A DNA stretch of 64,000 bases, from assembly GCA_016192685.1 (NCBI GenBank), contig JACPTS010000001.1:97710-161709 (forward strand). The letters are read 5' to 3'. This DNA comes from Candidatus Harrisonbacteria bacterium (GTDB lineage Bacteria; Patescibacteriota; Minisyncoccia; UBA6257; 02-FULL-45-10c). Position numbers and translations under genes: made by a program. The notes under the pieces were generated by a model that was not told the origin of the DNA, did not search any database, and saw nothing but the letters and a program-made list of their open reading frames with translations. Below, piece after piece: positions 9,741 to 60,284 of this stretch (position 1 is its first letter; each line of letters opens with the position of its first letter).

Positions 9741-9746
9741 ATAAAT

Positions 9747-15095: not shown

Positions 15096-15120
15096 ACTGC
15101 TGCTAGAGATTACAAATAGT

Positions 15121-41235: not shown

Positions 41236-42086
41236 ATTGTTTTGAATTCAATCGCCAGAGCCGTGGCTTCGGCCTGGGCAATATGAGTCATATGAGTTCT
41301 TTTGCTCTCAATTTCCCGAATACGAGAAAGCATGCCAACAAGACCCTGACGATGATACGCGCCAAGAATAACTTTACCCATTTCATCGGCATTGCGGCTC
41401 TCGGCAAACTCAATCATGCCGTCAGTAAATAAAAGCAAAGTCTTTAATTCTTTCAGCGGTAAAGTTGTTTTATACCAGCTATTTTCCGCTCCTGACTGGC
41501 CATTAAGAACAACTGCCTTTTTATCTAAATTTTTATTTACTCTTTCAATCCGCAATTTAGCGGAGATAGGCATATATTCAAGCCAGGCTCTATTGCGATC
41601 GCCGTGGTATTTTTTAATAATGTTATTAATAATATTGATACACTCTTCTTCATTAAGAATATTTTGATTTGATGTTGCTCCTATTTCCCCGTTAGTTTTT
41701 TCCCATACCGCATAGCAATCGCCCCCCTGCAAAATTTGGATGCCGTCTTCTCCTATTTTTACAAAAGCAAAAGCCATTCCCGGCAATAAGTCCGCGCGAT
41801 TCATATCAATCCCCTGCGATTCAGAAAATTCCCGAAGTCGGGCATTTGCTTTTTTTACAACCGCGATCAATTCGTCGCTATCGTTCGCTTGAGTAAAAAC
41901 CTCATCCACTATTTCAACGGCCTTTTGCCCGCCGGATTTGCCGCCAAAAAGCCTTGGCCCGACTGCCGGGTCATAAAGTCCGCTTACTCCATCCAGCACT
42001 CCAAAAAACGGCGGGTGAAAAACAAGTCTATCTTCCAAAATCTTTGCCGTTCCCGAATCATAAAGAGTTTTTACCCGAAAATCCAT
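41232..42086 (-). CDS. PP2C/SpoIIE-like protein phosphatase domain protein
   Basis: 284 aa. GVLDGVSG (cf. PP2C GxxDGHGG), GGDCYAVW, and LLFTDGMIE (cf. the DG[LV]WD motif). Assignment is moderate. Confidence 0.55.
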   Translation of the reverse strand: MDFRVKTLYDSGTAKILEDRLVFHPPFFGVLDGVSGLYDPAVGPRLFGGKSGGQKAVEIVDEVFTQANDSDELIAVVKKANARLREFSESQGIDMNRADLLPGMAFAFVKIGEDGIQILQGGDCYAVWEKTNGEIGATSNQNILNEEECINIINNIIKKYHGDRNRAWLEYMPISAKLRIERVNKNLDKKAVVLNGQSGAENSWYKTTLPLKELKTLLLFTDGMIEFAESRNADEMGKVILGAYHRQGLVGMLSRIREIESKRTHMTHIAQAEATALAIEFKTI

Positions 42087-46072: not shown

Positions 46073-47928
46073 AGATTTGAATTTTTATTTAAATGGTATA
46101 TTTGATAAAAATAAGATTGCGGCTGTCGCAAAAGTTCCTGCGGCGCGCCGCTTTCCACAATGCGGCCTCCATCCAATACCAAAATCCTGTCAAATTCCCT
46201 AACCGTAGAAAGCCGGTGCGCGATCGCAAAAACCGTAATTTTGCCGCGCAAATCCGCGATTGCTTTCTGAATAAGCGCTTCTGATTCATTATCCAAAGCG
46301 CTGGTGGCCTCGTCAAGAATTAAAATCTCGGGTTTTCGCGCCAAAACTCTGGCTAGCGCGATTCTTTGTTTCTCTCCGCCGGAAAGACGGACTCCTCTTT
46401 CACCAACTATAGTTTCAAATTGCTCGGGAAGATTTTTAATAAATTCATAAATATTGGCCATTTTTGCCGCTTCAATAATATCCTCTTTATTCATCGCGGG
46501 GTCGTAAAATTTAATATTATTCAAAATAGTATCGTTAGTTAAAAAAACATCTTGAGACACATAGCCGATATTTGTTCTCCATTCCCGCAAACTGATGTCA
46601 GCCGCGTCTTCTCCGTCCAACAAAATTACTCCGCTCTTTGGTTTAAACAAACGCAAAAGCAAATCAACAATCGTGGTCTTGCCGGCGCCGGAAGAGCCGA
46701 CTAATCCCAATAATTCTCCCTTTTTAATATAAAAATTGTTATGGGACAATATTTCCTTCTGGCCGTCATAATCAAAACCGACATCCTTAAATTCCAAGCT
46801 ATGGCGGAAAGAAAAATTTTTTCTTCCGGAATCCGTTTCTTTATTGCTCGCGGCCTCTTCGCGGTAAGCCAAAACGCTGGCAAGCGACGGAATCAAAGAA
46901 TTCCACACATATACTTCCGATTGGGCCGCCTGAATACCGGCAAAAACCCTGTTAATCGCGTAAACCGCCACCGCGAAAGAACCGAGATTAAACGCGCCGC
47001 TTTTATAAAAAAAAGTAAATACGCCGACAATAAACAAAATGCCTACCGGCTGGAGCATCGCGGTATTAAAACTGCCGAGTTCTCCGATTTTAATTTGTAA
47101 ATTCTTTATATCGTCAAAATATGCTTCGCCTTTTCGCAATGCCCGCTCCTCGGCAAACATTGATTTAATGGATTTCATCCCGATAATATTCTCATTCACG
47201 TAATGGGCCAAATCTTTGGATCTTTGGACCATTTTCTGGGACAGGTTTCTGGTTTTATTGAATAACGGCTTAAATAAAAATAATATTGCCCCGCCAAAAA
47301 CAATAGCCAATACCGCGACCCAAAAAGAAACATTTACCACCAATAAACTATAAATGGCGATATTAACCGCTATTAAAAATGCGGAACTGATATGAGCCAG
47401 TAAGGCCGAACTATCTTTGACATTGGCCACTAAAATCTGATCCAAATGCCCGACTTTTTGCTTAGAAAGATAAGACCAATCGCCGGCAAAAGTTAATTTT
47501 AAAAGCTCCAGCCGGGTTTTTTTCTGGTAATCTCCGATAATAACATTGGTAATATATTGGCCGGCAAATAACAAAATAGCCTTAATAAAAAATAACAGCA
47601 AAATAAAAATAAGCAGGTATTGAATCGTAAAATTTATATTGGAATAAATAAAAAAACTCTCTATCGCTCTGGAAATAACATCGTTTGCCGGAACGTTATT
47701 TTTATCGGCAAAAGAAAGCAGGGGGATAATCGCGTTTATCCCGAAACCTTCCAGAATTCCGCTAAAAAAAGTCAGAACTGCCATAATCGCAATCTGCGAT
47801 TTATACTGCCCGAAAGCTTCTTTTAATAATCGCAACCATTCCGAAAATTTATATTTTTTATTGACCATATACTTCAATATAACCCTAAAAAATAAAAATG
47901 AGTTACCCGCTTTGGCACTCATTTTCAT
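46069..47928 (-). CDS. ABC transporter, fused permease/ATPase (MsbA-like exporter)
   Basis: 619 aa. Six TM helices, then Walker A GSSGAGKTT, signature LSGGEKQRIALAR and Walker B ILILDEATSALD. Confidence 0.9.
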   Translation of the reverse strand: MKMSAKAGNSFLFFRVILKYMVNKKYKFSEWLRLLKEAFGQYKSQIAIMAVLTFFSGILEGFGINAIIPLLSFADKNNVPANDVISRAIESFFIYSNINFTIQYLLIFILLLFFIKAILLFAGQYITNVIIGDYQKKTRLELLKLTFAGDWSYLSKQKVGHLDQILVANVKDSSALLAHISSAFLIAVNIAIYSLLVVNVSFWVAVLAIVFGGAILFLFKPLFNKTRNLSQKMVQRSKDLAHYVNENIIGMKSIKSMFAEERALRKGEAYFDDIKNLQIKIGELGSFNTAMLQPVGILFIVGVFTFFYKSGAFNLGSFAVAVYAINRVFAGIQAAQSEVYVWNSLIPSLASVLAYREEAASNKETDSGRKNFSFRHSLEFKDVGFDYDGQKEILSHNNFYIKKGELLGLVGSSGAGKTTIVDLLLRLFKPKSGVILLDGEDAADISLREWRTNIGYVSQDVFLTNDTILNNIKFYDPAMNKEDIIEAAKMANIYEFIKNLPEQFETIVGERGVRLSGGEKQRIALARVLARKPEILILDEATSALDNESEALIQKAIADLRGKITVFAIAHRLSTVREFDRILVLDGGRIVESGAPQELLRQPQSYFYQIYHLNKNSNL

Positions 47929-47949: not shown

Positions 47950-48549
47950 TTAATCTGTAATGCTCCAGTTATAATCGCCTTTGCTGGCGCGATAGAGTTT
48001 GCATTTTTTAATGTCCGCGGAAGAAAGACTAAGCGCTTCACAATCTAAATTAGAATTAAAATCAATAGTTGTCAGCGTGCTTCTGGAAAGATTAATAGTG
48101 CTGCCAAGAGCGTAATTATCCGAAGAGCTGGGATTGCTAGCGGTATTAGCGGATTGCGACGCCGGTTGAATAATATTGCCGTTAACATCCACTAAAGCGC
48201 CATTTGGCAAACGAAAAGTTCCTGATGGCAAAGATGGGGCTGGAGATGGAGTGGGCGGAGCCGGTGAAGCTTTTTTCAACGCTTCCAAAAATTGGGCGGT
48301 TTGCGCCAATTTCTCTTCTATTTCCGTTTTTTTGGTTTTTGCCGTGGTCTGAACAACTGATTTTTCTTCTTTTTCCGGCTGACTAATGGCCGCTTCCTGA
48401 ACTATCTCCTGACTGCTGGTTGCGGCGACCGGCGCTTCGAAAACCCCGCTTTGTGGGGCTAAAGGCGCGGAAACCAAACCAACCGCCACTAAAATCGTTA
48501 CGGCAACGGACGCTATTTTATTAAAAACTGCGCTTAAAAATCCCCACAT
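47950..48549 (-). CDS. hypothetical secreted/anchored protein with a Pro-rich linker
   Basis: 199 aa. N-terminal TM, then KLAQTAQFLEALKKASPAPPTPSPAPS, the same style as the repeats in the 23454-24386 protein. Confidence 0.45.
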   Translation of the reverse strand: MWGFLSAVFNKIASVAVTILVAVGLVSAPLAPQSGVFEAPVAATSSQEIVQEAAISQPEKEEKSVVQTTAKTKKTEIEEKLAQTAQFLEALKKASPAPPTPSPAPSLPSGTFRLPNGALVDVNGNIIQPASQSANTASNPSSSDNYALGSTINLSRSTLTTIDFNSNLDCEALSLSSADIKKCKLYRASKGDYNWSITD

Positions 48550-48574: not shown

Positions 48575-50074
48575 TTAAAATTTCAAAATATGCCCCTGAA
48601 CAGTTAAAATCAGCTCTACAATTTCCCGAACCGCGTGCTGCCCGCCCTTGGCTGCCGCGACATAATCAACAATGGATCTTATTCTCGGATGGGCATCGGC
48701 AACCGTGATTGATACTCCAACCACATTAAAAACCGCTTCATCATTTAAATCATCGCCAATATAAGCCGCTTCTTTTTGAGAAAATCCGTACTCCGACATA
48801 ATCCTTTTTAAAATTTCCGCTTTTCCGCCGGCATCGGCTACGCCTTGCGAACATTTAATATTCCAAGTTTTACAACGGGCAGCCACTACCGGATTAATTG
48901 TTTTAGAAATGACGTAGGGTGTGATGCCAAACCGTTTCAGCATTTCAATGCTTAAACCATCTTTACGGCTGCAACGCACGGTTTCTTTCCCGTTTTGGTC
49001 AATATAAACAAATCCATCGGTTAGCACGCCGTCAAAATCCATTGCCAATAACTTAACATTTTTTAACTTTTCGGCTAATTCTTGATTAGAAAACCAGATC
49101 GCCCTCCTGGGAAAAATAATTCTTACCATCGCCCAAGACTTATCATCAAATAACACGAAAGCCAGTAAAAAAATCAGTGTGCCGAACGCCTTAAAAAAAG
49201 TCGCCGGCTCGCCAAAAAACAAAACTCCAAAAATCATCGTCATAATCAAATAACTGCTGTTCATTACCAAATTTTTAAAAGCGATAAAAGCGCCAAATTT
49301 ATAACTTAAAAGATTGAAAATCAAGGCGCCGACAAAAAATACGCTGGTACCGGCCGCTGCTAACCAAAACTTCCGCATTGACAAAGAAAAATCAGCTAAT
49401 AACTCAACCTGATTTAACCAAAATAATCCTCCCAAAGAAACCAAAATCGTTGCTAAACCTCCCCAAAAACTCAATGTCAAAGGATGAGATTCTTTAATCC
49501 ATTGGGCAATCCCTTGAATAACCGCCAAAAGCAGCATCACCGCAAAAGACAATTCAATCCAAAGCGGCAAATTAGAAATCTCCGCCAAAGACGGATAACC
49601 GAGAACTGTATATCCGGCTGCTGCGGCAAACACAATGCCTAAAATCTTCCGAAAATTTAAGGTATTGCCGAAAAGAAAATAACCAATCAGCGCTCCGGGA
49701 ACTATGGATAAAGTAACAATTAAAGTATTGACGCCTACATCTCCGCCGCTAGCAAAAACCAAAAAAGTGAGGATAGTGGCAACTGAAAAAATAATCCCAT
49801 ATAAAATTGCTCCGAAAATATGTTTTGGGGCATCCAGAATACTGCCTAAAGATTTATCAGTAAGTCCCCGGCTGACAGCATAAATAACCTGAAACAAACC
49901 AATAACTAAAGTAGCGGCATAAGCATGGCCAAAAGTAACGCTGAGCTGGCCGACGGATTTCTGAAATAACTTAGCTCCAGTTTTAAAAACCGCTTCCAGC
50001 AAAATCCATTTCATCCAGGACTCACCGGCCATCTTTCTGCCATCCCAAAATATCTTTAAAAAATTATTTGCCAT
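48575..50074 (-). CDS. polytopic membrane domain fused to a KdsC-family (HAD-IIIA) ulosonate-phosphate phosphatase
   Basis: 499 aa. About 330 aa with 9-10 TM helices, then LLAMDFDGVLTDG...GDDLND...KGG, which is the KdsC/YrbI signature. Confidence 0.75.
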   Translation of the reverse strand: MANNFLKIFWDGRKMAGESWMKWILLEAVFKTGAKLFQKSVGQLSVTFGHAYAATLVIGLFQVIYAVSRGLTDKSLGSILDAPKHIFGAILYGIIFSVATILTFLVFASGGDVGVNTLIVTLSIVPGALIGYFLFGNTLNFRKILGIVFAAAAGYTVLGYPSLAEISNLPLWIELSFAVMLLLAVIQGIAQWIKESHPLTLSFWGGLATILVSLGGLFWLNQVELLADFSLSMRKFWLAAAGTSVFFVGALIFNLLSYKFGAFIAFKNLVMNSSYLIMTMIFGVLFFGEPATFFKAFGTLIFLLAFVLFDDKSWAMVRIIFPRRAIWFSNQELAEKLKNVKLLAMDFDGVLTDGFVYIDQNGKETVRCSRKDGLSIEMLKRFGITPYVISKTINPVVAARCKTWNIKCSQGVADAGGKAEILKRIMSEYGFSQKEAAYIGDDLNDEAVFNVVGVSITVADAHPRIRSIVDYVAAAKGGQHAVREIVELILTVQGHILKF

Positions 50075-51002
50075 GATTAACTAACTCCTCACAAATCTTT
50101 TTTGCAACCGCATATTGAGTTTCCGGAGTAAAAGTAGCAATATGCGGCATGGCAATAACTTTCGGGTGAGAAATCAAACGCTTAAGAATTTCATTATTAA
50201 ACGGCGGCTCTTCGGAAAATACGTCCAAAGCAACGCCGGCAACCCACCCGGATTCAACCGCCGCCAGCAACGCCTTTTCATCTGTCACTTCTCCGCGCGA
50301 AGTATTAATTACATAGGCTCCTGGTTTTAATAAAGATAATAATTTTTCATTAACTATTTGCTTGGTAAGGTCAGTCAATGGCACATGGAAAGTAATAAAA
50401 TCGCTTTTTTGAAGCAAGGTTTCCAATTCTGATTTTTCCACGCCAATACTCTTTAAAAAATCTTCATCATAGACTATATCATTTGCCAGCACCCGCATCC
50501 CTAAATTTCGCGCCATTTTCGCAACCTCTTTGCCGATATTTCCCAAACCGACGATTCCAAGAGTTTTCCCGGAAACTTGCGTTGCCGATGTCCGTTTCCA
50601 CTTGCCTTCTCTCATGTCATTGGCAAACGGCACGATATTGCGAGCCAAAGTAAAAATAAAAGCCATGGTCAGCTCGGCAACCGAATGTTTATTAATGCCG
50701 GGAAAAAACTTTAACGCAATTCCCCGCTCTTCCAGCGCCGGAATATCAATATGTTCTAACCCCACTCCAAATGGCATTACCACTTTAAGATTGGGAAATA
50801 GCGAAAATTCTTTTTTGCCAACCGGCAATAAAGCTCCGGCTACCATCGCCGCCACCTCTTCGGGATTAAAAGAAAATGGCGGGTTAAGCCGCTCATCTAG
50901 CACAACGCGCCAACTATGCTCATCTAAAAATTCCGCCAGGTCAGGAGAACGGACAATAGTATTAGAAAATGACGGAGTGGTGGTAAGAACTATTTTGGCC
51001 AT
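50064..51002 (-). CDS. D-isomer-specific 2-hydroxyacid dehydrogenase
   Basis: 312 aa. GKTLGIVGLGNIGKEVA and the catalytic R/E/H arrangement with PHIA. Confidence 0.85.
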   Translation of the reverse strand: MAKIVLTTTPSFSNTIVRSPDLAEFLDEHSWRVVLDERLNPPFSFNPEEVAAMVAGALLPVGKKEFSLFPNLKVVMPFGVGLEHIDIPALEERGIALKFFPGINKHSVAELTMAFIFTLARNIVPFANDMREGKWKRTSATQVSGKTLGIVGLGNIGKEVAKMARNLGMRVLANDIVYDEDFLKSIGVEKSELETLLQKSDFITFHVPLTDLTKQIVNEKLLSLLKPGAYVINTSRGEVTDEKALLAAVESGWVAGVALDVFSEEPPFNNEILKRLISHPKVIAMPHIATFTPETQYAVAKKICEELVNHGK

Positions 51003-52165
51003 GGATGCTGTTTCAAGGCTTTTTCATTTATTTCCGTGCCCCAGCCTGGTCCTTTCGGAAGTTCCATCTGGCCGTTAATAATCTTCGGAACATTGGTAAC
51101 CACCTCATCCCGCCACGGCACATCTTCCACATCCAATTCCATAATCCGAAGATTGGGAATCACCGCAGAAAGCTGGGCGCTGATAAAAGTCGCCAAATGC
51201 CCGTTATGGTTATGAGGCGCAAAATTCATTTCCTGTAATTCCGCCAAGGCCGCGATTTCTTTAGCGCGGATAAATCCATTCCAGGTCGGATTGGAAATAA
51301 CAATATCCATGGCATGGCGTTCCAAATAAGGACGATATTGCCTCGCGCCGTAAAGGTCTTCACCGGAAGCAATTGGAATTTTTACTGAATCCCTAATCAA
51401 CCGAAGCGCGCCTGGATCATAAGAATCCAGTTCCAGCCACATCAAATTGTATTTTTCCAGCATCCGGCCAATTTTAATAAAGCCCTCGGTTTTAAAATTA
51501 AAATTAAGGTCTAAAATAATATCTATATCATCGCCGGCAGCATCGCGAAGCGCGCTTGCCCACTTATCAATCGCTTTCAATTTATAATTATCAACATTCA
51601 GTTCTGGCCAGCCATCGCTTTTAGCAAAGCCCGCCATATAAATTTCCGGCTTCTCGCCAAAAAATGCGACTTTCGGCTTAATCACTTTAAAACCGGAGGA
51701 TTTTACCTCTTTAATTAACTCTTTTAACTCGCTAAGCGACTGCATCTGCGGTTTGCCGATCGCGGCCGCGTCCCGAACCCGGGAAGTGGCAAAATGCGAC
51801 CAGTATAAAGGAATGGTCTCGCGGACTGGCCCACCAAATAATTCGTAAACCGGAACGCTTAAAGCTTTTGCTTTAATATCTAAAAGCGCGTTTTCAATGC
51901 CGCCAATGGCTTTTTGAATAATACTGCCCGGACTCTGCCGAGTCCGCGAATACATCAGCCAGTATAATTTTTCCACCAAACGCGGGTCCTGACCAACTAA
52001 AAGCGAACTTAAATCTTTAATAACTCCCTCAAGTCCGCGCGGCGAGCCATGGGAATCAGAGCATTCGCTCCAGCCAACCAAACCTTCATCTGTGGAAATT
52101 TTAACAAAAGTCCACGGCCGCCAGCCCGCATCACAATATAAAGCTTCTACTTTAGTAATAACCAT
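50990..52165 (-). CDS. enolase-superfamily (mandelate racemase/muconate lactonizing enzyme-like) sugar-acid dehydratase
   Basis: 391 aa. Capping domain plus TIM-barrel acid residues (IDIILDLNFNF, LDSYD pattern). Confidence 0.75.
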   Translation of the reverse strand: MVITKVEALYCDAGWRPWTFVKISTDEGLVGWSECSDSHGSPRGLEGVIKDLSSLLVGQDPRLVEKLYWLMYSRTRQSPGSIIQKAIGGIENALLDIKAKALSVPVYELFGGPVRETIPLYWSHFATSRVRDAAAIGKPQMQSLSELKELIKEVKSSGFKVIKPKVAFFGEKPEIYMAGFAKSDGWPELNVDNYKLKAIDKWASALRDAAGDDIDIILDLNFNFKTEGFIKIGRMLEKYNLMWLELDSYDPGALRLIRDSVKIPIASGEDLYGARQYRPYLERHAMDIVISNPTWNGFIRAKEIAALAELQEMNFAPHNHNGHLATFISAQLSAVIPNLRIMELDVEDVPWRDEVVTNVPKIINGQMELPKGPGWGTEINEKALKQHPWPK

Positions 52166-52169
52166 TTTA

Positions 52170-52886
52170 TTATTTATTTAAATTATTCTTTAAATATTCG
52201 GCCACCATAAAATCCACTTCCGAATCAATGTCCACTGACCGGTCTTGTGGAACAATATAAGGCCGAATCCGCTCTCCGGTAATGGAATTATACTTGGAAA
52301 GTATATGGGGACGAAAAGCGACTAAATTAGCGCGAAAATAGGCCTTGGCATATCCTTGCCTAAGCAGAGGCGCCGCGTCTTTCGGGTCACCGCTGATATA
52401 GCCAACCACTAATTCTCCTCCCTTACCGTCCGGGACCAATTTTAAAGCTTTTGCCGGATGCTGGCTTGCCAGTGCCATTACAATAGAAGAGTCTGCTTCC
52501 GGATCATTTAAAAGCGCTTCCACGGCGCCGTCAAAATCGCCAGGCTGCTGAAAAGGCACGGTCGGCATTCCGCGCACCACTAAATCCGGCTCATAACTTT
52601 CATTTTCCCGAAGCCAATTTACCGCGTGATTCACATAATCAAAATCAGTGGATTTATCGCCGGAAAATTCTGCCGGCCGCAAAAATGGCGTTTCCGCGCC
52701 ATAATCTCTTGCCACTTTGGCATATTCTTCTGAATCAGTGGAAATAATCACCCGATTAACATATTTTGATTTTTTCGCCGCCTCAATAACCCAAGCCAAC
52801 AGCGGCTTTCCGCCAAGCAATTTTATATTTTTATTCGGAACGCCTTTTGAGCCGGAACGGGCGCCGATCAAAGCCAAAACCGTCAT
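52170..52886 (-). CDS. acylneuraminate cytidylyltransferase family (second CMP-sugar synthetase)
   Basis: 238 aa. LALIGARSGSKGVPNKN. Confidence 0.85.
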   Translation of the reverse strand: MTVLALIGARSGSKGVPNKNIKLLGGKPLLAWVIEAAKKSKYVNRVIISTDSEEYAKVARDYGAETPFLRPAEFSGDKSTDFDYVNHAVNWLRENESYEPDLVVRGMPTVPFQQPGDFDGAVEALLNDPEADSSIVMALASQHPAKALKLVPDGKGGELVVGYISGDPKDAAPLLRQGYAKAYFRANLVAFRPHILSKYNSITGERIRPYIVPQDRSVDIDSEVDFMVAEYLKNNLNK

Positions 52887-52898
52887 TGATATTACAAC

Positions 52899-53810
52899 CT
52901 AAAATATAGCCACTGGGTTAACTGGCGAGCCAGTGGCATTTTTAAGCCGCAAAGGATTAATAGAAATCAAAAATTCCCAGCGTTTTTTTTCCTTGCAAAC
53001 TTTAGCTAACTCTTCAAGATTAGCATTATCTAAAATCCAAAGACCCATACTTACCAATGAAATCACATGGAATGGATTGTTAATATTGGGATATAAATTG
53101 CTTTTATGACTATTTGCAGTATCTGAACCAATAATGGAAACTTCTCGCTCGCGAAGCCATGGCATAGCGGCGGCGCTTAATCCTGGTTCTTTTGCAATTT
53201 CAATATTTTCTTTTGTTTCTAAAATTCTTTTATAATTGCCAGTCCGCACTAATAATACATCACCCGATTCAACTTTCACTCCAACAATTTTTTCTGCCGC
53301 TTCCAAATCCGCAACCGTTACTGCTTCTCCCGATTCCAACCATTTTTTATTTTTTATAGCGGCAACATCCAATAACACGCCTCGTGTGATAATACCGTTT
53401 CTCAAAACCTCCACATCATTGACTTGCGCGCCTTCCCGAGAACTGACCAAATCTGCCGGCCGGTTATTATACATCTTGCCTTTCCAAAAATAATGGGCCG
53501 GGCTGTCTATGTGGGTAATGCTGTTGCCATGAAAAACCATTCCAATGTATTCCAATCCCGCTCGCCGACCTTCGCCGCTGTCAATCTCTTTACGCAACGC
53601 TTGCGTTTTAAGATCCGGCTCCGGAGAACTCTCTATCGGTCTTGCGCAAGTAACTGAAACTCCATCCCGTACCAAAGCCAAAGATTTTTTGACTTTCTTC
53701 GGATTTATAAAATTAATCGTTCCCAGCTCATCTTCTTTTCCCCAGCGTTCCCAATTGCTTAAAGAATCCAAATAACTTAAAACTTCTTTTTCGCTAAAAT
53801 TATCATTCAT
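52899..53810 (-). CDS. cyclase-family protein (PF04199, kynurenine-formamidase-like)
   Basis: 303 aa. HGNSITHIDSPAH matches the HxGTHxDxPxH cyclase motif. Confidence 0.65.
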   Translation of the reverse strand: MNDNFSEKEVLSYLDSLSNWERWGKEDELGTINFINPKKVKKSLALVRDGVSVTCARPIESSPEPDLKTQALRKEIDSGEGRRAGLEYIGMVFHGNSITHIDSPAHYFWKGKMYNNRPADLVSSREGAQVNDVEVLRNGIITRGVLLDVAAIKNKKWLESGEAVTVADLEAAEKIVGVKVESGDVLLVRTGNYKRILETKENIEIAKEPGLSAAAMPWLREREVSIIGSDTANSHKSNLYPNINNPFHVISLVSMGLWILDNANLEELAKVCKEKKRWEFLISINPLRLKNATGSPVNPVAIF

Positions 53811-53880
53811 AATATCGTAATTATATAACCCGCAAACAATACAAATAGTAATAAAAAAATACCCGTATTCTACAGGTATT

Positions 53881-54861
53881 TTATAAAATTTCCACTCCTT
53901 CTAAATTTCCTTCCAAAACATTCACTACATTCCGCGTAACTTTCAAAACAATTTCTTGTTCCGTGCTTTTAGTTAACGAGGCGCTATGAGGAGATAAAAT
54001 AATATTGCCGCCATTTTTTCCATACTCTATCAGTTTTTTCATAAACAGCTGATCAAACGGCGGCTCGCTGGAAAAAACATCCAGCGCGGCTCCGCCAATT
54101 TTTTTAGCCATTACTAATTCGGCCAGGACTTCTTCATCAACAACTGCGCCGCGGGAAATATTTACCAAAAACGCATCAGGCCTCATCAATGAAAGCAAAT
54201 TCTTACCAATCAAGTTAGTGGTTTCCGGAGTGAGTAAAACTGATACTACTACGGCATCACTGGCAGACATCACTTGGGGAAGCTCTACCAATTTTAATCC
54301 GTATTTATCTGCTATTTCTAACACTTCTGGCCGCCGCGATTGATTCCAACCAATAAGATTTCCGACACCTAACGCATGCAACTTCTCTGCCAAGAGACGC
54401 CCAATAGAACCAACCCCTACGATTCCTACGGTCATTTCTGATAAAGATTTGCCTCGGCTTTTCTGCCATATACCCCCAAGCATATTGCTATGCATCGGTA
54501 CAATATTTCTAGAAAGCGCTAAAATAAGGCCCAAAACAAATTCGCTGACTGGCTTAGCATTTAAGCCGGAAACACGGGTAACCCTAATTCCTTTAAGCCG
54601 AGCGGCAGCAAGATCTACGTTGTTATAGCCAGTTCCATTTCTGGCAATCGTCTTTAAATTTGGAAAAAGGCGCATAACCTCATCACCGCATTCTTTATCA
54701 CCCAATACCAAAGCAATCACTCTCTCCGCCATATCCACTGACAATTTAAAATCATCAGTTCGGATTAATTCAAATCGATCCTGAAAAACTTCCTGATTTG
54801 CTAACCCTCTCTCATTCCAAAAACCGCGCGCTGCTATTAGAATTACTGGTTTTTGATTCAT
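53881..54861 (-). CDS. D-isomer-specific 2-hydroxyacid dehydrogenase (second copy)
   Basis: 326 aa. VGIVGVGSIGRLLA with the PH and RG catalytic blocks. Confidence 0.85.
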   Translation of the reverse strand: MNQKPVILIAARGFWNERGLANQEVFQDRFELIRTDDFKLSVDMAERVIALVLGDKECGDEVMRLFPNLKTIARNGTGYNNVDLAAARLKGIRVTRVSGLNAKPVSEFVLGLILALSRNIVPMHSNMLGGIWQKSRGKSLSEMTVGIVGVGSIGRLLAEKLHALGVGNLIGWNQSRRPEVLEIADKYGLKLVELPQVMSASDAVVVSVLLTPETTNLIGKNLLSLMRPDAFLVNISRGAVVDEEVLAELVMAKKIGGAALDVFSSEPPFDQLFMKKLIEYGKNGGNIILSPHSASLTKSTEQEIVLKVTRNVVNVLEGNLEGVEIL

Positions 54862-55646
54862 TGCTGTACCCTCTTACGGAGCATGGTAATGCGAGTCGCA
54901 TCTTCTTCCGCCGCGTGAGTATGCAAACGGGATTTATTTTCCAGCCACAAAAGCTCCAGCTGATGCGCGCTCCTAACTGCCTCATCAAAAGATTCCAATC
55001 CCCGCTTAGCGTCAAATACCACCTTTCTGGTTTCAAAACGATCCAGTAAATTATTGGCAACCAAATTTTCAATCAGCGGGCGGCTGCCAGATTCAATGCT
55101 TCCGCCAAGCATTGTGCCAAACCCATGTTCTCGCGCCCCCCTGAAAATAGCAGTTACCCTTTCCGACATTAATGGAGAATCAATATCTTTACGAGTAAGT
55201 CCAAAAGATCCCGTAAGATCCACGCGGCCAATGGTGATGTGCTTAAGTCCATAAGCCGACGCAAGTTTCAGCATGGCATTTAAATCTTCATAAGCTTTCG
55301 CGGTTTCAATCATAAATATAATTGCGGTATCTTCCCGCTCATCTTCCGGCAAATGCTTATTAACCGCATCAATAAATTTACTAAGCGCGTAAACGCTTTC
55401 AATCATCGGGGCGACAATGCCGGAAACGCCAATCCGGCGCGCTTGCAAAATTCCCCAGACATCTTCCGGACCGCCAATTTTAAGAGTAAGATGCACGCCG
55501 GAACGCGATACAATATCTTTCAAACGCAATAATTCTTCAAAACGGGTGCCTTCCGATTCAAATTCCGCTTTCAAACCAACTACTCCATATTCATCGCGCA
55601 TTCTCGTAAGCAAAGCTACGATTTCTTTTTCTTTTATGTTCATCAT
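54858..55646 (-). CDS. HpcH/HpaI-family aldolase / citrate-lyase beta-like protein
   Basis: 262 aa. IETAKAYEDL and ITIGRVDLTGSFGL resemble the PF03328 active-site regions. Confidence 0.6.
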   Translation of the reverse strand: MMNIKEKEIVALLTRMRDEYGVVGLKAEFESEGTRFEELLRLKDIVSRSGVHLTLKIGGPEDVWGILQARRIGVSGIVAPMIESVYALSKFIDAVNKHLPEDEREDTAIIFMIETAKAYEDLNAMLKLASAYGLKHITIGRVDLTGSFGLTRKDIDSPLMSERVTAIFRGAREHGFGTMLGGSIESGSRPLIENLVANNLLDRFETRKVVFDAKRGLESFDEAVRSAHQLELLWLENKSRLHTHAAEEDATRITMLRKRVQQ

Positions 55647-55735
55647 ATCTCCTTTTATATTAGAACTATAAAAGATAACAAAATTTCCCGCATATCAGTC
55701 ACTGCGTCATAAACGAGCTACCTATCTGCCATGCG

Positions 55736-55757
55736 GCCTGCCTGCCGGCAGGCAGGC
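55736..55757. other. perfect 22-bp GC-rich palindrome in an intergenic region
   Basis: gcctgcctgccggcaggcaggc, between an SDR gene end and the aldolase gene start. Confidence 0.8.
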
Positions 55758-55772
55758 AACTACGGAGAAAAA

Positions 55773-56573
55773 TCAACGCATTATCGCTCCGCCATCAACA
55801 AAAAGTATTTGCCCGGTAATGTTTTTCGCCTCGTCAGAGCCGAGAAAAACCGCCGCCATCCCGATGTCTTCCGGAGTTTGCTCTCGCTGAAGCGGCACTA
55901 ATTCTTTCATGCGCTTTTCAAAAATGGCGCGCGGTTCCATATTTTGATATTTCTCCGGAAATAATTCTTTTAAATTTTCGGCAATATGTTCCCAAAGCGG
56001 CGTCCAAACCAATCCCGGCGCGATGGCATTCACCGTAACGCCATACGGAGCGAATTCGTGGGCAAGAATTTGGGTAAAAGTGGCGACTCCCATCTTGGCC
56101 ACGCTATACGGCGGTTTCATGCGGCCGGGCATGAATGCCGCGATAGATGAAAGATTAATAATTCTTCCGGATTTGCGTTCCTGAAAATGCGGCGCGATTG
56201 CTTTAGCGGCATAAAAAACTGGTTTCATATTAAATTTCCACGCCTCATCCCAATCTTCTTCGGTATTCCGAGTGAACGGCAGTCCGGGCCGGCATTCTTT
56301 TCCGACATTATTAACTAAAATATCTATTCCGCCGAATTTTTCAATCACTTTCCTGAAAAAATCATTTATCTCTTTTTCTTGAGTAACATCTAATTTTACC
56401 GCCGACACCTTTGCCCCGGACTTGGATAATTCCGATGCCGCGTTTTCCGCTTGTTCTAAATTAATATCAGCAATAACCGCGATTGCTCCTTCTTTTGCCA
56501 TGCAAGAGACAATTCCCTTTCCAATGCCGCTGGCGCCGCCGGTCACAACTGCTACTTTATTTTTGAGTCTCAT
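55773..56573 (-). CDS. SDR-family oxidoreductase
   Basis: 266 aa. VAVVTGGASGIGKG with catalytic YxxxK (YSVAK). Confidence 0.88.
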   Translation of the reverse strand: MRLKNKVAVVTGGASGIGKGIVSCMAKEGAIAVIADINLEQAENAASELSKSGAKVSAVKLDVTQEKEINDFFRKVIEKFGGIDILVNNVGKECRPGLPFTRNTEEDWDEAWKFNMKPVFYAAKAIAPHFQERKSGRIINLSSIAAFMPGRMKPPYSVAKMGVATFTQILAHEFAPYGVTVNAIAPGLVWTPLWEHIAENLKELFPEKYQNMEPRAIFEKRMKELVPLQREQTPEDIGMAAVFLGSDEAKNITGQILFVDGGAIMR

Positions 56574-56593
56574 AAATATTTTAATTATTAATT

Positions 56594-57397
56594 TTAACGC
56601 ATCACTGCGCCGCCGTCCACGAATAATATTTGTCCGGTGATATTTTTTGCTTCATCAGAGGCAAGAAAAACCGCCGCCATCCCGATGTCTTCCGGAGTTT
56701 GTTCTCTTTTTAAAGGAATCAAATCGCTTACATGCTTATTAAAAATCTGCCGCGGAGACATTTTTTTATATTTTTCCGGCCATCGCTCAACCAGCTGAGG
56801 CGCGAACCCTTCCCATAAAGGCGTCCAAACCAATCCCGGCGCGATGGCATTCACCGTAACGCCATACGGAGCGAATTCGTGGGCAAGAATTTGGGTAAAA
56901 GTCGCTATGCCGACCTTGGAAACGCTGTAATGGGGTTTAGTAAGTCCGGGCATAAATCCGGCAATAGAAGACATATTAATAATCCTACCTGATTTACGTT
57001 CCTGAAAATGCGGCGCGATTGCTTTAGCGGCATAAAAAACCGGCTTCACGTTAACATCCCAGACCAAATCCCAATCTTCTTCAGTATTATTAGTAAATGG
57101 CATTCCCAACTTTCCGGTAACACCAACGTTATTCACCAAAATATCAATTCCGCTAAAATCATCAATAACTCTCTTAATCGCTTTCCGCGTTTCTTGTTCT
57201 TTAGTAACGTCCACTTGTAATGCCAGTCCGCGAGTACCATAAGAATCCGCGCAAAATTTCATAACCTCTTCCGCTTGTTTTATATCACGGTCAGCAATAA
57301 TCGCGATTGCCCCCTCTTTTGCCATACAATTCACAATGCCTTTTCCAATGCCGTTGGCGCCGCCGGTTATAATTGCTACTTTATTTTTGAGTCTCAT
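56594..57397 (-). CDS. SDR-family oxidoreductase (tandem paralog)
   Basis: Start placed at the internal Met (MRLKNKVAIITGGANGIGKG); the ORF track extends to 57427. Shares stretches of up to ~85 bp identical to the adjacent paralog. Confidence 0.85.
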   Translation of the reverse strand: MRLKNKVAIITGGANGIGKGIVNCMAKEGAIAIIADRDIKQAEEVMKFCADSYGTRGLALQVDVTKEQETRKAIKRVIDDFSGIDILVNNVGVTGKLGMPFTNNTEEDWDLVWDVNVKPVFYAAKAIAPHFQERKSGRIINMSSIAGFMPGLTKPHYSVSKVGIATFTQILAHEFAPYGVTVNAIAPGLVWTPLWEGFAPQLVERWPEKYKKMSPRQIFNKHVSDLIPLKREQTPEDIGMAAVFLASDEAKNITGQILFVDGGAVMR

Positions 57398-57402
57398 TAT
57401 AA

Positions 57403-58155
57403 TTATTTTACTTGCTTTTCTTCGCAATGCGCGTTCATTAAGGCAAATTTCGGATTTTCATCTAAATATGTAAGCACCTCCAGAACGCTGATAATCTGCC
57501 CTCCGCCCTTATAAAATTTTTTATAGATCAATTCCATTAGCTCAAAATCTTCCGGAAAATCCACGGTCAGGCGATAATTCCGCGCGTATTTCGGCGGAGC
57601 AATAACTATCGGACCGATTTTAAATTCTCCTTTTTTATTGTCCATAATATAAGGATCTACATGCTCTTTGTCGTAAGCCGAAGTCGCTTCCCGAAACGCT
57701 TTCTCAATCGCCCGGAAAGAAAATATCTCGCAGTCAAGGCCGCGCGGAAAAGTTCTCTCGCCGGAAAATACATTACTGATGTAATCATAATTATCTTTTT
57801 TAAACGCCTCTAAACATAAATCAATAATTTTAGGGTCAATTAACGGGCAATCAGCAGTGATGCGAACAACAGTATCACCGGCAGTAGCGCCATATTTTTT
57901 TGCCGTTTCATAATAACGCTCCAGAACATTTTCCACCGATCCCCGAAAATATAAAAAATTATTTTCCCGGCAAAATTTTTCCGTTGCGTCATCTTCCGGC
58001 GCAATCGTGGTGGCTACTATAACTTTATCTATATAACGAGAACGCCTTACCCGGTTAACCACGTGCCAGAGCTGGGGCTTGCCCGCTAAATCTTTTAAGA
58101 TCTTTCCCGGCAGGCGGGTAGAACCCATCCGAGCCTGAATAATAGCTAAAATCAT
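57403..58155 (-). CDS. cytidylyltransferase (PseF/SpsF/acylneuraminate cytidylyltransferase family; third copy)
   Basis: 250 aa. LAIIQARMGSTRLPGKILKDLAGKP. Confidence 0.8.
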   Translation of the reverse strand: MILAIIQARMGSTRLPGKILKDLAGKPQLWHVVNRVRRSRYIDKVIVATTIAPEDDATEKFCRENNFLYFRGSVENVLERYYETAKKYGATAGDTVVRITADCPLIDPKIIDLCLEAFKKDNYDYISNVFSGERTFPRGLDCEIFSFRAIEKAFREATSAYDKEHVDPYIMDNKKGEFKIGPIVIAPPKYARNYRLTVDFPEDFELMELIYKKFYKGGGQIISVLEVLTYLDENPKFALMNAHCEEKQVK

Positions 58156-59294
58156 TAAAAAGTTTTAATTATTTCAATCAACTTTTTAACAATAAATTTC
58201 TGGTCTTTGGATTTTAAATCGGGAAAAATCGGCAAAGAAATCGCGGCTTCATAATACGCTTCAGCTTTTGGACACAGGCCTTTTTTAAATCCCAAAGATT
58301 GATAATAGGGATGCCAATAAACCGGCAGATAATGAACCTGGACTCCGATGCCCGCCTCTCTTAATTTTTTAAAAATGCCGGAACGTTTTTTCACCAACGC
58401 GCCTTTTAATCTGATTACATAAATATGCCAAGATGAAGAAAAATCTTTATTGTCTGACGGAAGTTCTAATTTATCAGAAAATTTCTTGAAAGCTTTGTTA
58501 TAAGCTGCGGCAATTTTTTTTCTTGCTTTTATAAATTTATCCAATCTTTTAAGCTGGGAAATTCCCAGCGCCGCCTGAATATCGGTAATCCGGTAGTTAT
58601 ATCCCAGTTCCTGCATCTCGTGATACCAATCTCCATGGGATTTCATTTTGAATTTCTCCGGGTCGCGGACAATTCCATGATGCCGGAAAACTTTCATTTT
58701 TTCATAATAATCTTTGTTATCGGTAAGCACCGCTCCTCCTTCCCCGGTAGTAATGGATTTTACCGGATGAAAACTAAATGCCGTCATGTCAGCCACAGAG
58801 CCGATTTTTTTTCCTTTATAACTTGCTCCTAACGCGTGACAGCCGTCTTCCACTAAAACTAAATTATGTTCACGCGCGATTTTTTTAAATTCTTCTAATT
58901 TCGCCGGCAAACCGGCAAAATCCACCACAGAAATAATTCTGGTTTTAGAATTTATTTTTTTTACCGCTTCCTTGGGATCCAGATTCAAATCTTCCGCAAT
59001 ATCGGCAAAAACCGGCTTAGCGCCTAAATAAAGACCGGGATTGGCAGTGGCGGCAAAAGTCAGTGGAGTAGTTATGAATTCGTCTCCAGATTTTAATCCG
59101 GCGGCGAAATAAGCGGCGTGAAGCGCGGCCGTGCCGCTGGAAAAAATCACGGCATATTTAGCGCCGCAATATTTGGCCAAAGCCTCCTCAAATTCGGCTA
59201 TTTTGGGACCTTGGCTTAACCAATCCGATTTCAAAACTTTCGTAACTGCTTCAATATCCGATTTATCAATTGACTGATGACCGTAAGGTATCAT
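58155..59294 (-). CDS. DegT-family PLP-dependent aminotransferase (PseC-like; third copy)
   Basis: 379 aa. MIPYGHQSIDKSDIEAV...LSQGPKIAEFE. Confidence 0.85.
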   Translation of the reverse strand: MIPYGHQSIDKSDIEAVTKVLKSDWLSQGPKIAEFEEALAKYCGAKYAVIFSSGTAALHAAYFAAGLKSGDEFITTPLTFAATANPGLYLGAKPVFADIAEDLNLDPKEAVKKINSKTRIISVVDFAGLPAKLEEFKKIAREHNLVLVEDGCHALGASYKGKKIGSVADMTAFSFHPVKSITTGEGGAVLTDNKDYYEKMKVFRHHGIVRDPEKFKMKSHGDWYHEMQELGYNYRITDIQAALGISQLKRLDKFIKARKKIAAAYNKAFKKFSDKLELPSDNKDFSSSWHIYVIRLKGALVKKRSGIFKKLREAGIGVQVHYLPVYWHPYYQSLGFKKGLCPKAEAYYEAAISLPIFPDLKSKDQKFIVKKLIEIIKTF

Positions 59295-59306: not shown

Positions 59307-60284
59307 TTATACAAAATTAGCAAGGTCTTCCTTAGTCAATTCCCTTGCTGCATTGCTGGCATAATTAAAATTTTCAGGAACATTAGGAAAATCTTTAAAA
59401 TGCGATTTATCCCACCAATCATGGCTCGGTTCAACTAGATAATATTTGCCAATGTCCCTCGCTCTCCGCGCCTCATCTTCGGTAAGAAGCATTTCATGCA
59501 ATTTTTCCCCGGGCCTAGCGCCGATAATTTTAACTTTGCAATTGGGGACCAAAACCGAAATTAAATTCTTAACTTTCATTGCCGATAATTTTGGCACAAC
59601 GATCTCTCCGCCCTTCATTAAGCGTAAAGTATCCAAAACAAGATCTACTCCTTGATCCAAAGTAATCCAAAATCTAGTCATATCTTCGTGAGTGAGAGTA
59701 ACTTCGCCATTTTTTTTCTGTTCTTGTAAAACTTCGGTGATACTTCCGCGGCTGCCGACTACGTTTCCGTAACGCACTGCGCTAAAAATCGGTTTTTTCT
59801 CTATTCCGCTGTAAGAATTGGCCGCGATTAAAAGCTTTTCCGCGCAAAGCTTAGTGGCGCCGTAAAGATTTATCGGATTTACCGCTTTATCAGTGGAAAC
59901 CAGCACAACTTTTTTCACCCCATTATCCAAAGCCGCGTCAATGACATTTTGCGTGCCCAAAACATTGGTTTTAACCGCTTCCAACGGATTAAACTCCAGC
60001 ATCGGAACCTGTTTAAGGGCGGCCGCGTGGACTACCACATCCACCCCCCGAAAAGCTCGCTGTAATCTGGCAAGGTCGCGGACGTCTCCTAAAAAAAATC
60101 TTAATTTATTTCCCGGATTGCCGAATTTCCTCTGCATGGCATGCTGTTTAAATTCATCGCGGCTAAAAACAATAACCCGCTTGCAATCGCCGTCTTTCAA
60201 AAGAAACTCAACAAATTTTTGGCCGAAAGAACCGGTACCGCCGGTAACAAGCACGGACTTATCTTTCAAAAAATTTATATCCAT
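59307..60284 (-). CDS. UDP-GlcNAc 4,6-dehydratase (PseB/FlaA1 family; second copy)
   Basis: 325 aa. VLVTGGTGSFG, HAAALKQVP, VSTDKAVNP. Confidence 0.85.
   Translation of the reverse strand: MDINFLKDKSVLVTGGTGSFGQKFVEFLLKDGDCKRVIVFSRDEFKQHAMQRKFGNPGNKLRFFLGDVRDLARLQRAFRGVDVVVHAAALKQVPMLEFNPLEAVKTNVLGTQNVIDAALDNGVKKVVLVSTDKAVNPINLYGATKLCAEKLLIAANSYSGIEKKPIFSAVRYGNVVGSRGSITEVLQEQKKNGEVTLTHEDMTRFWITLDQGVDLVLDTLRLMKGGEIVVPKLSAMKVKNLISVLVPNCKVKIIGARPGEKLHEMLLTEDEARRARDIGKYYLVEPSHDWWDKSHFKDFPNVPENFNYASNAARELTKEDLANFV

Follow-up and report, generated by a model that had tools for sequence, protein, structure and literature searches.

A cytidylyltransferase-linked gene cassette with a candidate anabolic aldolase in a glycan operon of Candidatus Harrisonbacteria

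To our knowledge, all known ulosonic acids activated with cytidine monophosphate (CMP), that is Kdo, Kdn and the sialic, legionaminic and pseudaminic acids, receive their skeleton from a synthase of the KdsA or NeuB type that depends on phosphoenolpyruvate (PEP). In Mycobacterium marinum, deletion of MMAR_2331 ('aldolase/citrate lyase family'), which adjoins the thiamine diphosphate (ThDP) enzyme gene MMAR_2332, abolishes caryophyllose, and MMAR_2331 has been proposed to use pyruvate and an aldehyde to form a gamma-hydroxy-alpha-keto acid as donor (PMC9306805). A second cytidylyltransferase together with a short-chain dehydrogenase/reductase (SDR) is known in nonulosonate tailoring, where ElaABC and EpaAB carry out C8 epimerisation (PMC13656337, PMC12053666). 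The present work concerns a stretch of 64 000 nucleotides from a Candidatus Harrisonbacteria bacterium (contig JACPTS010000001.1), called the window hereafter, and within it a group of genes that includes a distant relative of the HpcH/HpaI aldolases (the HpcH-like protein), two D-2-hydroxyacid dehydrogenases (2HADHs) and a NeuA/PseF-like cytidylyltransferase. Together with a membrane-anchored KdsC-type phosphatase, these genes most likely form a self-contained cassette for a CMP-activated acidic keto-deoxy sugar, which we propose to be neither pseudaminic nor legionaminic acid.

Cassette genes and their conservation

Domains were called using Pfam gathering scores, NCBIfam equivalog and subfamily cut-offs and profile searches against the PDB. 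From ~26 kb to its end, the window consists of a single long minus-strand glycan operon, and all the genes listed in the initial annotation were found there, on the minus strand and with the same limits. They encode two SDRs (copy a, 56594-57427, adh_short_C2 E-value 3e-59; copy b, 55773-56573, 2e-57), the HpcH-like (HpcH_HpaI) protein (54858-55646; PF03328, 28.8 bits, E-value 9e-7), a 2HADH of 326 residues (53881-54861; 2-Hacid_dh_C, 4e-45), a cyclase-family putative metal hydrolase (52899-53810; PF04199, 2e-21), an enolase-superfamily (MR_MLE) protein (50990-52165; MR_MLE_C, 7e-40, with MR_MLE_N also found) and a SerA-like 2HADH of 312 residues (50064-51002; 2-Hacid_dh_C, 1.5e-57). Where a single cytidylyltransferase had been named, two are present: the inner, NeuA/PseF-like enzyme of 238 residues, CT238 (52170-52886; PF02348, CTP_transf_3), and a SpsF-like enzyme of 250 residues at the edge of the range (57403-58155; PF02348, 2e-36). 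The fusion of an EamA/DMT-like membrane domain with a KdsC/YrbI-family phosphatase (48575-50074, minus strand; TIGR01670, Hydrolase_3, weak EamA match) belongs with this gene set.

The flagged genes are real, selected genes rather than chance open reading frames (ORFs), because their domains match well (E-values 1e-21 to 1e-59, HpcH_HpaI excepted), because they are tightly packed and overlap (HpcH-like/2HADH by 4 nt, MR_MLE/2HADH by 13 nt, 2HADH/phosphatase fusion by 11 nt) and because their order is retained, at 72-94% protein identity, in the related metagenomic contigs L001-L003. The MR_MLE protein and CT238 each have a 100% identical counterpart in a Candidatus Harrisonbacteria metagenome-assembled genome (Candidate Phyla Radiation, CPR). 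A scan for promoters and terminators returned no more sites than shuffled sequences did, and terminator-like sites in the region were likewise no commoner than in shuffles. One long hairpin was conspicuous, of 12 bp followed by a T run (53856-53882, minus strand) in the 70-nt gap between the 2HADH and cyclase genes; this possible internal terminator or attenuator may split the cassette into two units and is reported as a lead only.

The conserved core of the cassette is made of CT238, an SDR, a 2HADH, the HpcH-like protein and a second 2HADH. It recurs at 42-59% identity in the loci L007/L010, L009 and L094, and L008 has it except for the SDR (HpcH-like protein 47-53%, cytidylyltransferase 44-53%, SDR 44-59%). 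The linkage of the aldolase-like gene to a cytidylyltransferase, which the initial annotation had raised, thus holds for the inner enzyme in distant genomes. Orthologs of the 326-residue 2HADH (42-78% identity) stand directly after the HpcH-like gene in L001, L007, L008, L009, L092 and L094, and orthologs of the 312-residue 2HADH (43-59%) occur in L007-L009, L093 and L094. Other genes are variable extras: the KdsC-like phosphatase (window, L001, L008, L092), the MR_MLE and cyclase genes (window, L001-L003, L092/L095, L093; the cyclase is absent from L007-L009 and L094), a small cupin (L008, L092, L094) and an aldehyde dehydrogenase (L007). The window has neither the cupin nor the aldehyde dehydrogenase of its relatives. 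The small cupin, with weak JmjC-like matches, may act on the sugar as a hydroxylase or an epimerase. It is fused to a cytidylyltransferase in the homologs P0298 and P0346, and in L009 (11886-13454) a cupin domain weakly similar to it is fused to NeuB.

Comparison of the loci showed the cassette to be independent of the neighbouring PseB, PseC and SpsF-like genes. In the window and L001-L003, PseB (UDP-GlcNAc 4,6-dehydratase (inverting), 59307-60284; TIGR03589, 431.5 bits against a cut-off of 407.75) and the PseC aminotransferase (58155-59294; TIGR03588, 500.8 against 423.5), both on the minus strand, lie directly upstream, and in L092 and L093 the cassette likewise follows a dehydratase/aminotransferase pair. 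It had been suggested that the aldolase completes a third PseB/PseC/cytidylyltransferase set by joining pyruvate to the 6-deoxy-amino-hexose from PseB and PseC, giving a pseudaminic acid-like nonulosonic acid without NeuB. This is now very improbable, because these genes are not conserved with the cassette and because a KdsC-type phosphatase, which implies a phosphorylated chain end that 6-deoxy sugars do not have, is left without a role for 9-deoxy sugars. The upstream pair is of another paralog type in L092/L093 and in L095, PseB and PseC are absent from L007, L009 and L094, and L007/L010 and L094 contain no dehydratase/aminotransferase pair at all; the SpsF-like gene is missing from L092/L095, L007, L009 and L094. 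Moreover, the sub-cluster contains no PseG or PseH equivalent, and the two NeuB genes of the window suffice for two aminosugar sets. The full PseB/C/H/G/I/F set is not present either: no PseG-like gene was recognised in the window, both of its NeuB homologs fall below the PseI and NeuB cut-offs and all its cytidylyltransferases fall below PseF. From its sequence, the SpsF-like enzyme is probably the CMP-nonulosonate synthetase of the PseB/PseC pathway and not that of the cassette. Its best solved relative is 6oew (1e-39), it reached no NCBIfam cut-off (KdsB subfamily, 72 against 193), and it is 42% identical to the L008 cytidylyltransferase that lies beside NeuB and NeuC.

The same surroundings bear on another reading, which we consider improbable, in which the genes are a tailoring or substituent module for a nonulosonic acid made by NeuB. 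The extra cytidylyltransferase and the oxidoreductases would re-work a Pse/Leg-type sugar, or the aldolase and dehydrogenases would make a hydroxy-acid attached as an N-acyl or ether substituent. The products of a pyruvate aldolase acting ahead of a 2-oxoacid reductase would be 2,4-dihydroxy acids, which are known as glycan substituents. The cassette does stand amid Pse/Leg-type genes in the window, L008, L092 and L093, and the first form has a precedent in the second cytidylyltransferase and SDR of ElaABC/EpaAB (PMC13656337, PMC12053666). However, the Ela/Epa enzymes are of other families (GFO/IDH/MocA-type, SDR), in modules without an aldolase or an enolase-superfamily member. In L007/L010 and L094 the cassette has no dehydratase, aminotransferase or NeuB genes nearby, no acyl-activating enzyme, acyl carrier protein or acyltransferase is conserved with it, and the KdsC-family phosphatase would have no function for 9-deoxy nonulosonates.

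Nearly every homologous context was a glycan cluster, the exception being a cyanobacterial pair of HpcH-like and haloacid dehalogenase (HAD) genes (L006, L017); a metagenome scan with the single HpcH-like protein gave 6 loci. No sugar-acid catabolic set was found in any homologous context recovered, so the purely catabolic setting that the initial annotation had held against its own proposal was not encountered. Because of this context, a catabolic island, i.e. a non-phosphorylative sugar-acid pathway inside the glycan operon, is essentially excluded, although the family composition resembles that of rhamnonate/fuconate or glucarate pathways and weak NCBIfam similarities exist. The window contains no nutrient-uptake transporter, kinase or regulator, and the homologs of the HpcH-like, MR_MLE and cytidylyltransferase genes are, with the cyanobacterial exception, embedded in glycan clusters. 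The genes are also linked to a cytidylyltransferase and a KdsC phosphatase, and the host is a small-genome CPR bacterium.

CT238, judged by its sequence, appears to be the activating enzyme that belongs to the cassette. In the PDB it best matches NeuA/CMP-Neu5Ac synthetases; the PseF (131 bits against 205.7), NeuA and KdsB equivalog cut-offs were all missed, and its family counts >1200 homologs in public data. CT238-like genes (35-42% identity) are also carried by IMG/VR contigs labelled as giant viruses (L100, L168, L172-L177, L181-L183, L190); in several of them NeuB stands beside the CT238-like gene, and one such gene adjoins a NeuB-cupin fusion.

The phosphatase fusion is predicted from hydropathy to cross the membrane several times at residues ~40-310, and the phosphatase domain occupies residues 331-496. 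It scored 115.9 bits against the TIGR01670 cut-off of 106.95 (residues 340-493) and missed the equivalogs for KdsC (119 against 208) and Kdn-9-P phosphatase (86 against 180). Since the KdsC/YrbI cut-off is passed, a phospho-ulosonate intermediate is implied. Free-standing KdsC-like genes were found in L008, L098 and L099 (39-41% identity where measured, in L098 and L099). Fusion of such a phosphatase to a membrane domain is unusual; it is kept in L001, L002 and L092, and separate EamA proteins are also encoded in L092 and L164.

The MR_MLE protein reached no NCBIfam dehydratase cut-off (galactonate dehydratase, 161.6 against 311; ManD, 121 against 550), and the galactonate, mannonate or altronate dehydratase-like assignments suggested earlier were not borne out. 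It matched PDB entries 2oo6, 3sn0, 3sn1 and 3sn4 (9e-104, ~50% identity), a subgroup without assigned function. The 2oo6-type entries were deposited as 'putative L-alanine-DL-glutamate epimerase', and the four structures presumably hold dicarboxylate ligands. Residues D219, E245, E269 and H318 are invariant in 14 homologs, and their spacing suggests that they are metal ligands. The family is tight (>3400 proteins, the top 120 at >=60-70% identity), and an IMG/VR scan for it gave one uninformative locus (L166). Enolase-superfamily enzymes need a proton alpha to a carboxylate; we propose that this one is an acid-sugar dehydratase acting next to the carboxylate.

Both 2HADHs are nearest in the PDB to the short phosphoglycerate dehydrogenase (PGDH) 1wwk (3e-54 for the 312-residue enzyme) and remained below the PGDH equivalog cut-off of 454 bits (232.9 for the 312-residue and 159.9 for the 326-residue enzyme). 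The latter is proposed to be a 2-oxoacid reductase or oxidase partnering the aldolase. The two tandem SDRs are paralogs. Judged from sequence, the tandem is a recent lineage-specific duplication, because the copies are 71% identical and the relatives L001-L003 and L092 carry one SDR. The true start of copy a is probably the ATG at 57397, which gives MRLKNK as in its paralog. The cyclase-family protein, whose sole PDB match is the uncharacterised 5ibz and for which the NCBIfam search gave no match, may be a lactonase or an amidohydrolase. In L002, a GIY-YIG ORF of 87 residues (9493-9756) lies between the cyclase and cytidylyltransferase genes; it is absent from the window and L001.

The HpcH-like protein and its family

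The HpcH-like protein is marginally above the gathering score of PF03328 (28.8 bits against 25), over profile positions 58-184 only, and the NCBIfam search gave no match, so that the earlier suggestion of a KDGal/KDR aldolase found no support in the NCBIfam cut-offs. A profile of 30 homologs matched HpcH/HpaI/YfaU aldolases in the PDB at an E-value of 9e-5. The AlphaFold2 model (pLDDT 95.4) is a pyruvate-kinase-type TIM barrel. Its top Foldseek matches are the HpcH/HpaI aldolases 3qz6, 4mf4, 7et8 and 2v5k (TM-score ~0.5-0.6, 12-17% identity), after which pyruvate kinase, malyl-CoA lyase and PEP-binding domains are ranked. The earlier description as an HpcH/HpaI-type pyruvate aldolase is thus a weak assignment: the Pfam match is marginal, and the protein is only a distant relative with the HpcH fold. 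A PEP mutase or phosphonate role was rejected: the protein has no PEP_mutase match, its fold is nearest to HpcH/HpaI, and no phosphonopyruvate decarboxylase was found.

Across the 30 homologs, 36 columns are invariant. They include E114 ('N-x-E-T') and D143 ('G-R-V-D-L'), which fall on the IE.../G..DL motifs in the alignments with 3qz6 and 2vws. In HpaI, the metal ligands are E149 and D175, and the catalytic R70 lies at the end of strand 2. The family is large (~5000 matches); the recorded gene begins one codon later than the ORF, and the 100% match is P0001.

Contexts of the wider family were taken from 80 loci of named GTDB genomes and 62 IMG/VR loci. A YerE-type thiamine pyrophosphate (TPP) enzyme is encoded beside the HpcH-like gene in 63 of the 80 GTDB loci and 52 of the 62 IMG/VR loci, usually together with CDP-glucose 4,6-dehydratase and E1 dehydrase genes. 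Domain searches found no TPP enzyme and no E1 or CDP-glucose genes in the window or in window-type loci. A small SDR and a 3-dehydroquinate (DHQ) synthase-like gene accompany the HpcH-like gene in 34 and 35 loci, respectively, and a HAD phosphatase does so in 25 GTDB loci. DHQ synthase-like enzymes and HAD phosphatases both handle phosphate esters. Because one or the other lies <=4 kb from the HpcH-like gene in 59/80 GTDB loci, the aldol product of the family is suggested to carry a phosphate.

The protein of the window is 44-47% identical to proteins of Mycobacterium ahvazicum and M. bohemicum. In M. ahvazicum the gene order is TPP enzyme, HpcH-like, DHQ synthase-like, which matches the published caryophyllose cluster of M. 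marinum. The HpcH-like family was equated with MMAR_2331 by annotation and gene order. Given this precedent and the family neighbourhood, an anabolic aldolase role in glycan synthesis is a reasonable working assignment by analogy, and we propose that the protein of the window is an anabolic 2-oxoacid (pyruvate) aldolase. The aldolase-based biosynthetic idea of the initial annotation is thus supported in part, by the biosynthetic context, the linkage to CT238 and the precedent in the family; the link to the PseB/PseC set is not supported.

In L004, L024, L047 and L102-L163, the HpcH-like gene is tightly grouped with genes for a SDR of ~225 residues, a DHQ synthase-like protein and the YerE-type TPP enzyme, and the groups adjoin CDP-hexose 4,6-dehydratase and E1 genes. 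One idea is that the aldolase makes a phospho-ulosonate like 3-deoxy-D-arabino-heptulosonate 7-phosphate, from which the DHQ synthase-like enzyme would eliminate the phosphate before reduction by the SDR; a 3,7-dideoxy alpha-keto acid for caryophyllose-type branches would result. In Leptolyngbya (L006, L017), the sole partner of the HpcH-like gene is a gene for a NagD-type HAD phosphatase; the pair lies outside glycan clusters and adjoins a shikimate dehydrogenase gene.

Candidate pathway and the place of NeuB

The explanation ranked first, which we hold tentatively and with less than even confidence, is that the HpcH-like enzyme forms the CMP-bearing 'head' of the sugar independently of NeuB. 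It would join pyruvate, or a 2-oxoacid supplied by a 2HADH, to a phosphorylated aldehyde to give a 3-deoxy-2-ulosonate phosphate; in known pathways the equivalent condensation is carried out by NeuB or KdsA with PEP. The KdsC-type domain would then take off the phosphate. The SDR(s), the MR_MLE protein with its coupled 2HADH and the cyclase-family hydrolase would tailor the far end of the chain, probably by oxidation followed by dehydration and reduction next to a carboxylate. CT238 would make the CMP-sugar, which the ABC exporter and the KpsC/KpsS-like transferases would go on to use. All substrates, the succession of the steps and the formation of the head by the aldolase-like enzyme are what we infer from the gene content. 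A deoxy-ulosaric acid, i.e. a 3-deoxy-2-ulosonic acid oxidised, dehydrated and reduced at its far end, might fit as the product, because of the phosphatase, the SDR (in relatives, the aldehyde dehydrogenase), the enolase-superfamily enzyme and the 2-oxoacid reductase. 3-Deoxy-D-lyxo-heptulosaric acid (Dha) was considered and set aside as a named product: stereochemistry and chain length are not readable from the genes, and the window has no aldehyde dehydrogenase or cupin.

When the genes are counted, one cytidylyltransferase has no NeuB to go with it. Encoded in the window are three NeuA/SpsF-type cytidylyltransferases (the third is PseF-like, 40558-41235) and two NeuB homologs (42093-43103 and 35623-36681), which match two dehydratase/aminotransferase/acetyltransferase sets. 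L008 has two cytidylyltransferases and one NeuB, the latter in a NeuC-NeuB-cytidylyltransferase trio. A NeuB just past the window end, which would have made up a canonical third pathway, was not found within ~10 kb (contig L096); the genes there encode a GT2, a 528-residue protein, a third Capsule_synth protein, a GT4-methyltransferase fusion and a deacetylase. Within +/-10 kb, NeuB is also missing from L007/L010 and L094, whose unannotated ORFs gave no NeuB or KdsA signal. Such a NeuB-less neighbourhood is unusual, because NeuB lies beside 28 of 36 more distant CT238-like genes; it is also present in all four (4/4) loci with an MR_MLE-ApbA pair.

These four loci represent a sister cassette of NeuB type. 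L098, L099, L164 and L165 share a fixed order of MR_MLE, ApbA/PanE-type 2-oxoacid reductase and cytidylyltransferase genes, with neighbours encoding NeuB, an SDR, an aldehyde dehydrogenase, a transketolase-like protein, a cupin, an EamA protein and a TagF-like protein of ~460 residues; the KdsC-like phosphatase is present in L098 and L099 only, and none of the four has an HpcH-like or 2HADH gene. Pseudothioglobus, with the MR_MLE homolog P0173, is among the carriers of this cassette type. Their cytidylyltransferases are 51-58% identical to CT238, whose orthologs occur in both cassette types at 44-58%, and those of L098, L099 and L164 are 73-79% identical to that of the HpcH-type locus L008. 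Identities between the two types are 63-69% for the MR_MLE proteins, 53-55% for the cupins and 43-45% for the aldehyde dehydrogenases (L007 against the NeuB-type loci); among the TagF-like proteins, those of L007 and L009 match their counterparts in L164, L165 and L098 at E-values of 1e-45 to 1e-79. The cassette types share up to seven gene families, and they differ in that one has NeuB and ApbA (plus the transketolase-like gene) and the other the HpcH-like gene and two 2HADHs, the 312-residue 2HADH of the window sitting where the NeuB type has its ApbA/PanE-type reductase. Such a pattern would be expected if two routes led to one CMP-activated product or to two that are very similar. Literature searches found neither cassette type described.

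Several observations weigh against formation of the head by the HpcH-like enzyme, and NeuB independence is not proven, given the reductase coupling and L009. In every case the HpcH-like gene comes in direct coupling with a 2HADH, as does the MR_MLE gene with ApbA or a 2HADH. This coupling suggests that the 2-oxo group is reduced, which would make it unfit as the anomeric centre for a NeuA-type enzyme. L009 contains a NeuB-cupin fusion directly after the second 2HADH, so the HpcH-like protein and NeuB do not strictly exclude each other. The operons of the window, L008 and probably L092 themselves contain NeuB genes, which the cassette could share. The NeuB-less loci were viewed over 20 kb (+/-10 kb). 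TagF-like transferases are known to act with CDP-alditol donors and are not known to act with CMP-ulosonates. At the level of the protein, 12-17% identity to characterised aldolases makes for a weak family assignment, and the invariant Lys56 ('LKIGG') stands opposite the Arg of 3qz6 ('VRIPQ') in a weak alignment segment of 5.8 bits.

The coupling to reductases would fit a role in building the tail of the sugar, a reading that we find doubtful and place behind NeuB-independent head formation. The HpcH-like enzyme and its 2HADH would make a 2-keto-3-deoxy unit and reduce it at once to a 2-hydroxy-3-deoxy terminus, MR_MLE with ApbA or a 2HADH would reach the same end by dehydration, and a NeuB-type synthase encoded in the operon or elsewhere would make the CMP-bearing head, the product possibly being a dideoxy-ulosaric acid. 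The overlapping HpcH-like/2HADH (4 nt) and MR_MLE/2HADH (13 nt) pairs and the invariant MR_MLE-ApbA pair of L098, L099, L164 and L165 agree with this, as do the L009 NeuB-cupin fusion directly after the HpcH-like/2HADH genes and the NeuB genes of the window and L008; the SDR and aldehyde dehydrogenase genes of L007, L098, L099 and L165 would be in keeping with one end of the chain being oxidised to a carboxylate. However, L007/L010 and L094 have no NeuB in the 20 kb viewed, and the NeuB genes of the window and L008 can be assigned to other, complete-looking pathways, so that no synthase remains for one cytidylyltransferase and the KdsC phosphatase.

Surrounding genes and comparison with known systems

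On the far side of the phosphatase fusion, the minus strand encodes a 199-residue protein with an N-terminal hydrophobic segment and a Pro/Ser-rich stretch (47950-48549; family search without match, 68% identity kept in L001), a HepA/MsbA-like ABC exporter with fused membrane and ATPase domains (46069-47928) and two Capsule_synth (KpsC/KpsS-like, PF05159) putative CMP-ulosonate transferases (44579-46072 and 43137-44582). Exporter orthologs follow the cassette in L008 (49%) and L094 (40%). Capsule_synth orthologs occur in L008 (E-values 1e-116 to 1e-144), and L008 also has a separate ortholog of the third paralog, which lies past the window end in L096. The transferases vary by lineage, being KpsC/KpsS-like in the window and L008 and TagF-like elsewhere. 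In L094, a sulfotransferase-like gene and a gene for a 980-residue fusion of a pyruvate kinase barrel, ATP sulfurylase and APS kinase (13693-17509) adjoin the cassette, which suggests that this organism makes a sulfated version of the glycan.

Elsewhere, the operon encodes a second PseB-like dehydratase, two further DegT-type aminotransferases and two hexapeptide acetyltransferases; the window further encodes an initiating sugar transferase, a Wzx-type flippase and a ligase/Wzy-like protein. In the other nonulosonate sets, three genes were not expected where they lie, interspersed with those for NeuB, aminotransferases and dehydratase: they encode a DUF218 protein (36678-37346), a PduL-like phosphate acyltransferase (37343-37840) and a weakly PP2C-like protein (41232-42086, minus strand). 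The PduL-like enzyme may point to an acyl donor of an unusual kind. Two very large predicted surface proteins of 1352 and 2369 residues (5682-9740 and 16049-23158, minus strand), with lamin-tail, Big_5, CarboxypepD_reg and peptidoglycan-binding domains, adjoin the glycan operon and could be the targets of glycosylation.

It is possible, and we advance it with more reserve than the ranking of head formation, that an MMAR_2331-type enzyme of class-II-aldolase fold has taken the role of NeuB/KdsA, giving a NeuB-independent route to an undescribed CMP-activated acidic sugar, perhaps deoxy-ulosaric, that decorates CPR bacteria and many uncultured lineages. If so, an aldolase-fold enzyme working with the customary phosphatase and cytidylyltransferase would offer a second way to carry out the condensation step, and the cassette would point to a new acidic sugar. 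Homologs of CT238 and of its enolase-family partner extend to several CPR phyla, among them Harrison-, Kaiser-, Giovannoni- and Paceibacteria. The analysis defines a small set of soluble, reconstitutable enzymes, provides a functional hook for the enolase-superfamily subgroup of crystal structure 2oo6, which has no assigned function, and widens the part played by the MMAR_2331-type family in glycan synthesis to sugars other than branched ones.

Among described systems, ElaABC/EpaAB of Acinetobacter baumannii resemble the cassette in having an extra cytidylyltransferase and a SDR-type oxidoreductase in or beside a nonulosonate cluster. Unlike it, they act on a sugar made by NeuB and include no aldolase, enolase-superfamily protein, 2HADH or phosphatase. 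The HpcH/HpaI, YfaU and GarL aldolases of glucarate, galactarate and rhamnonate catabolism share with it the fold, the metal-ligand motifs (xxE... GxxDL) and the pairing of dehydratase and aldolase around a 2-keto-3-deoxy acid; the cassette differs from them in the 12-17% identity of its protein, an apparent Lys in place of the catalytic Arg, the biosynthetic context and a dehydratase of the 2oo6-like subgroup. The pathways of acyl-branched sugars (yersiniose, erwiniose and caryophyllose; YerE-type enzyme plus aldolase) are alike in the anabolic use of an aldolase and in the homology of the HpcH-like protein, whereas the window has no ThDP enzyme, CDP-hexose genes or DHQ synthase-like gene and the partners of its HpcH-like protein are 2HADHs and a CMP-transferase. 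The sister NeuB-type cassette has the orthologous cytidylyltransferase, MR_MLE protein and KdsC-like phosphatase, but NeuB and a ketopantoate-reductase-family enzyme and no HpcH-like protein, 2HADHs or cyclase; its EamA protein, cupin, aldehyde dehydrogenase and TagF-like transferase have counterparts in HpcH-type loci other than the window.

With the CMP-Kdo, CMP-Kdn and CMP-Neu5Ac pathways, the cassette has in common a KdsC/YrbI-family phosphatase and a NeuA-like CTP_transf_3 enzyme, in an operon with KpsC/KpsS-like transferases and an exporter, and the sequence of phospho-ulosonate, ulosonate and CMP-ulosonate. In contrast to them, it has no KdsA or NeuB of its own, the sole candidate for forming the carbon-carbon bond being the HpcH-fold protein; it adds two 2HADHs, an SDR, an enolase-superfamily and a cyclase-family protein, and its phosphatase is fused to a membrane domain. 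Going beyond domain identities and gene linkage, we infer a logic like that of CMP-Kdo, CMP-Kdn and CMP-Neu5Ac synthesis, in which the candidate condensing enzyme and the tailoring block are new.

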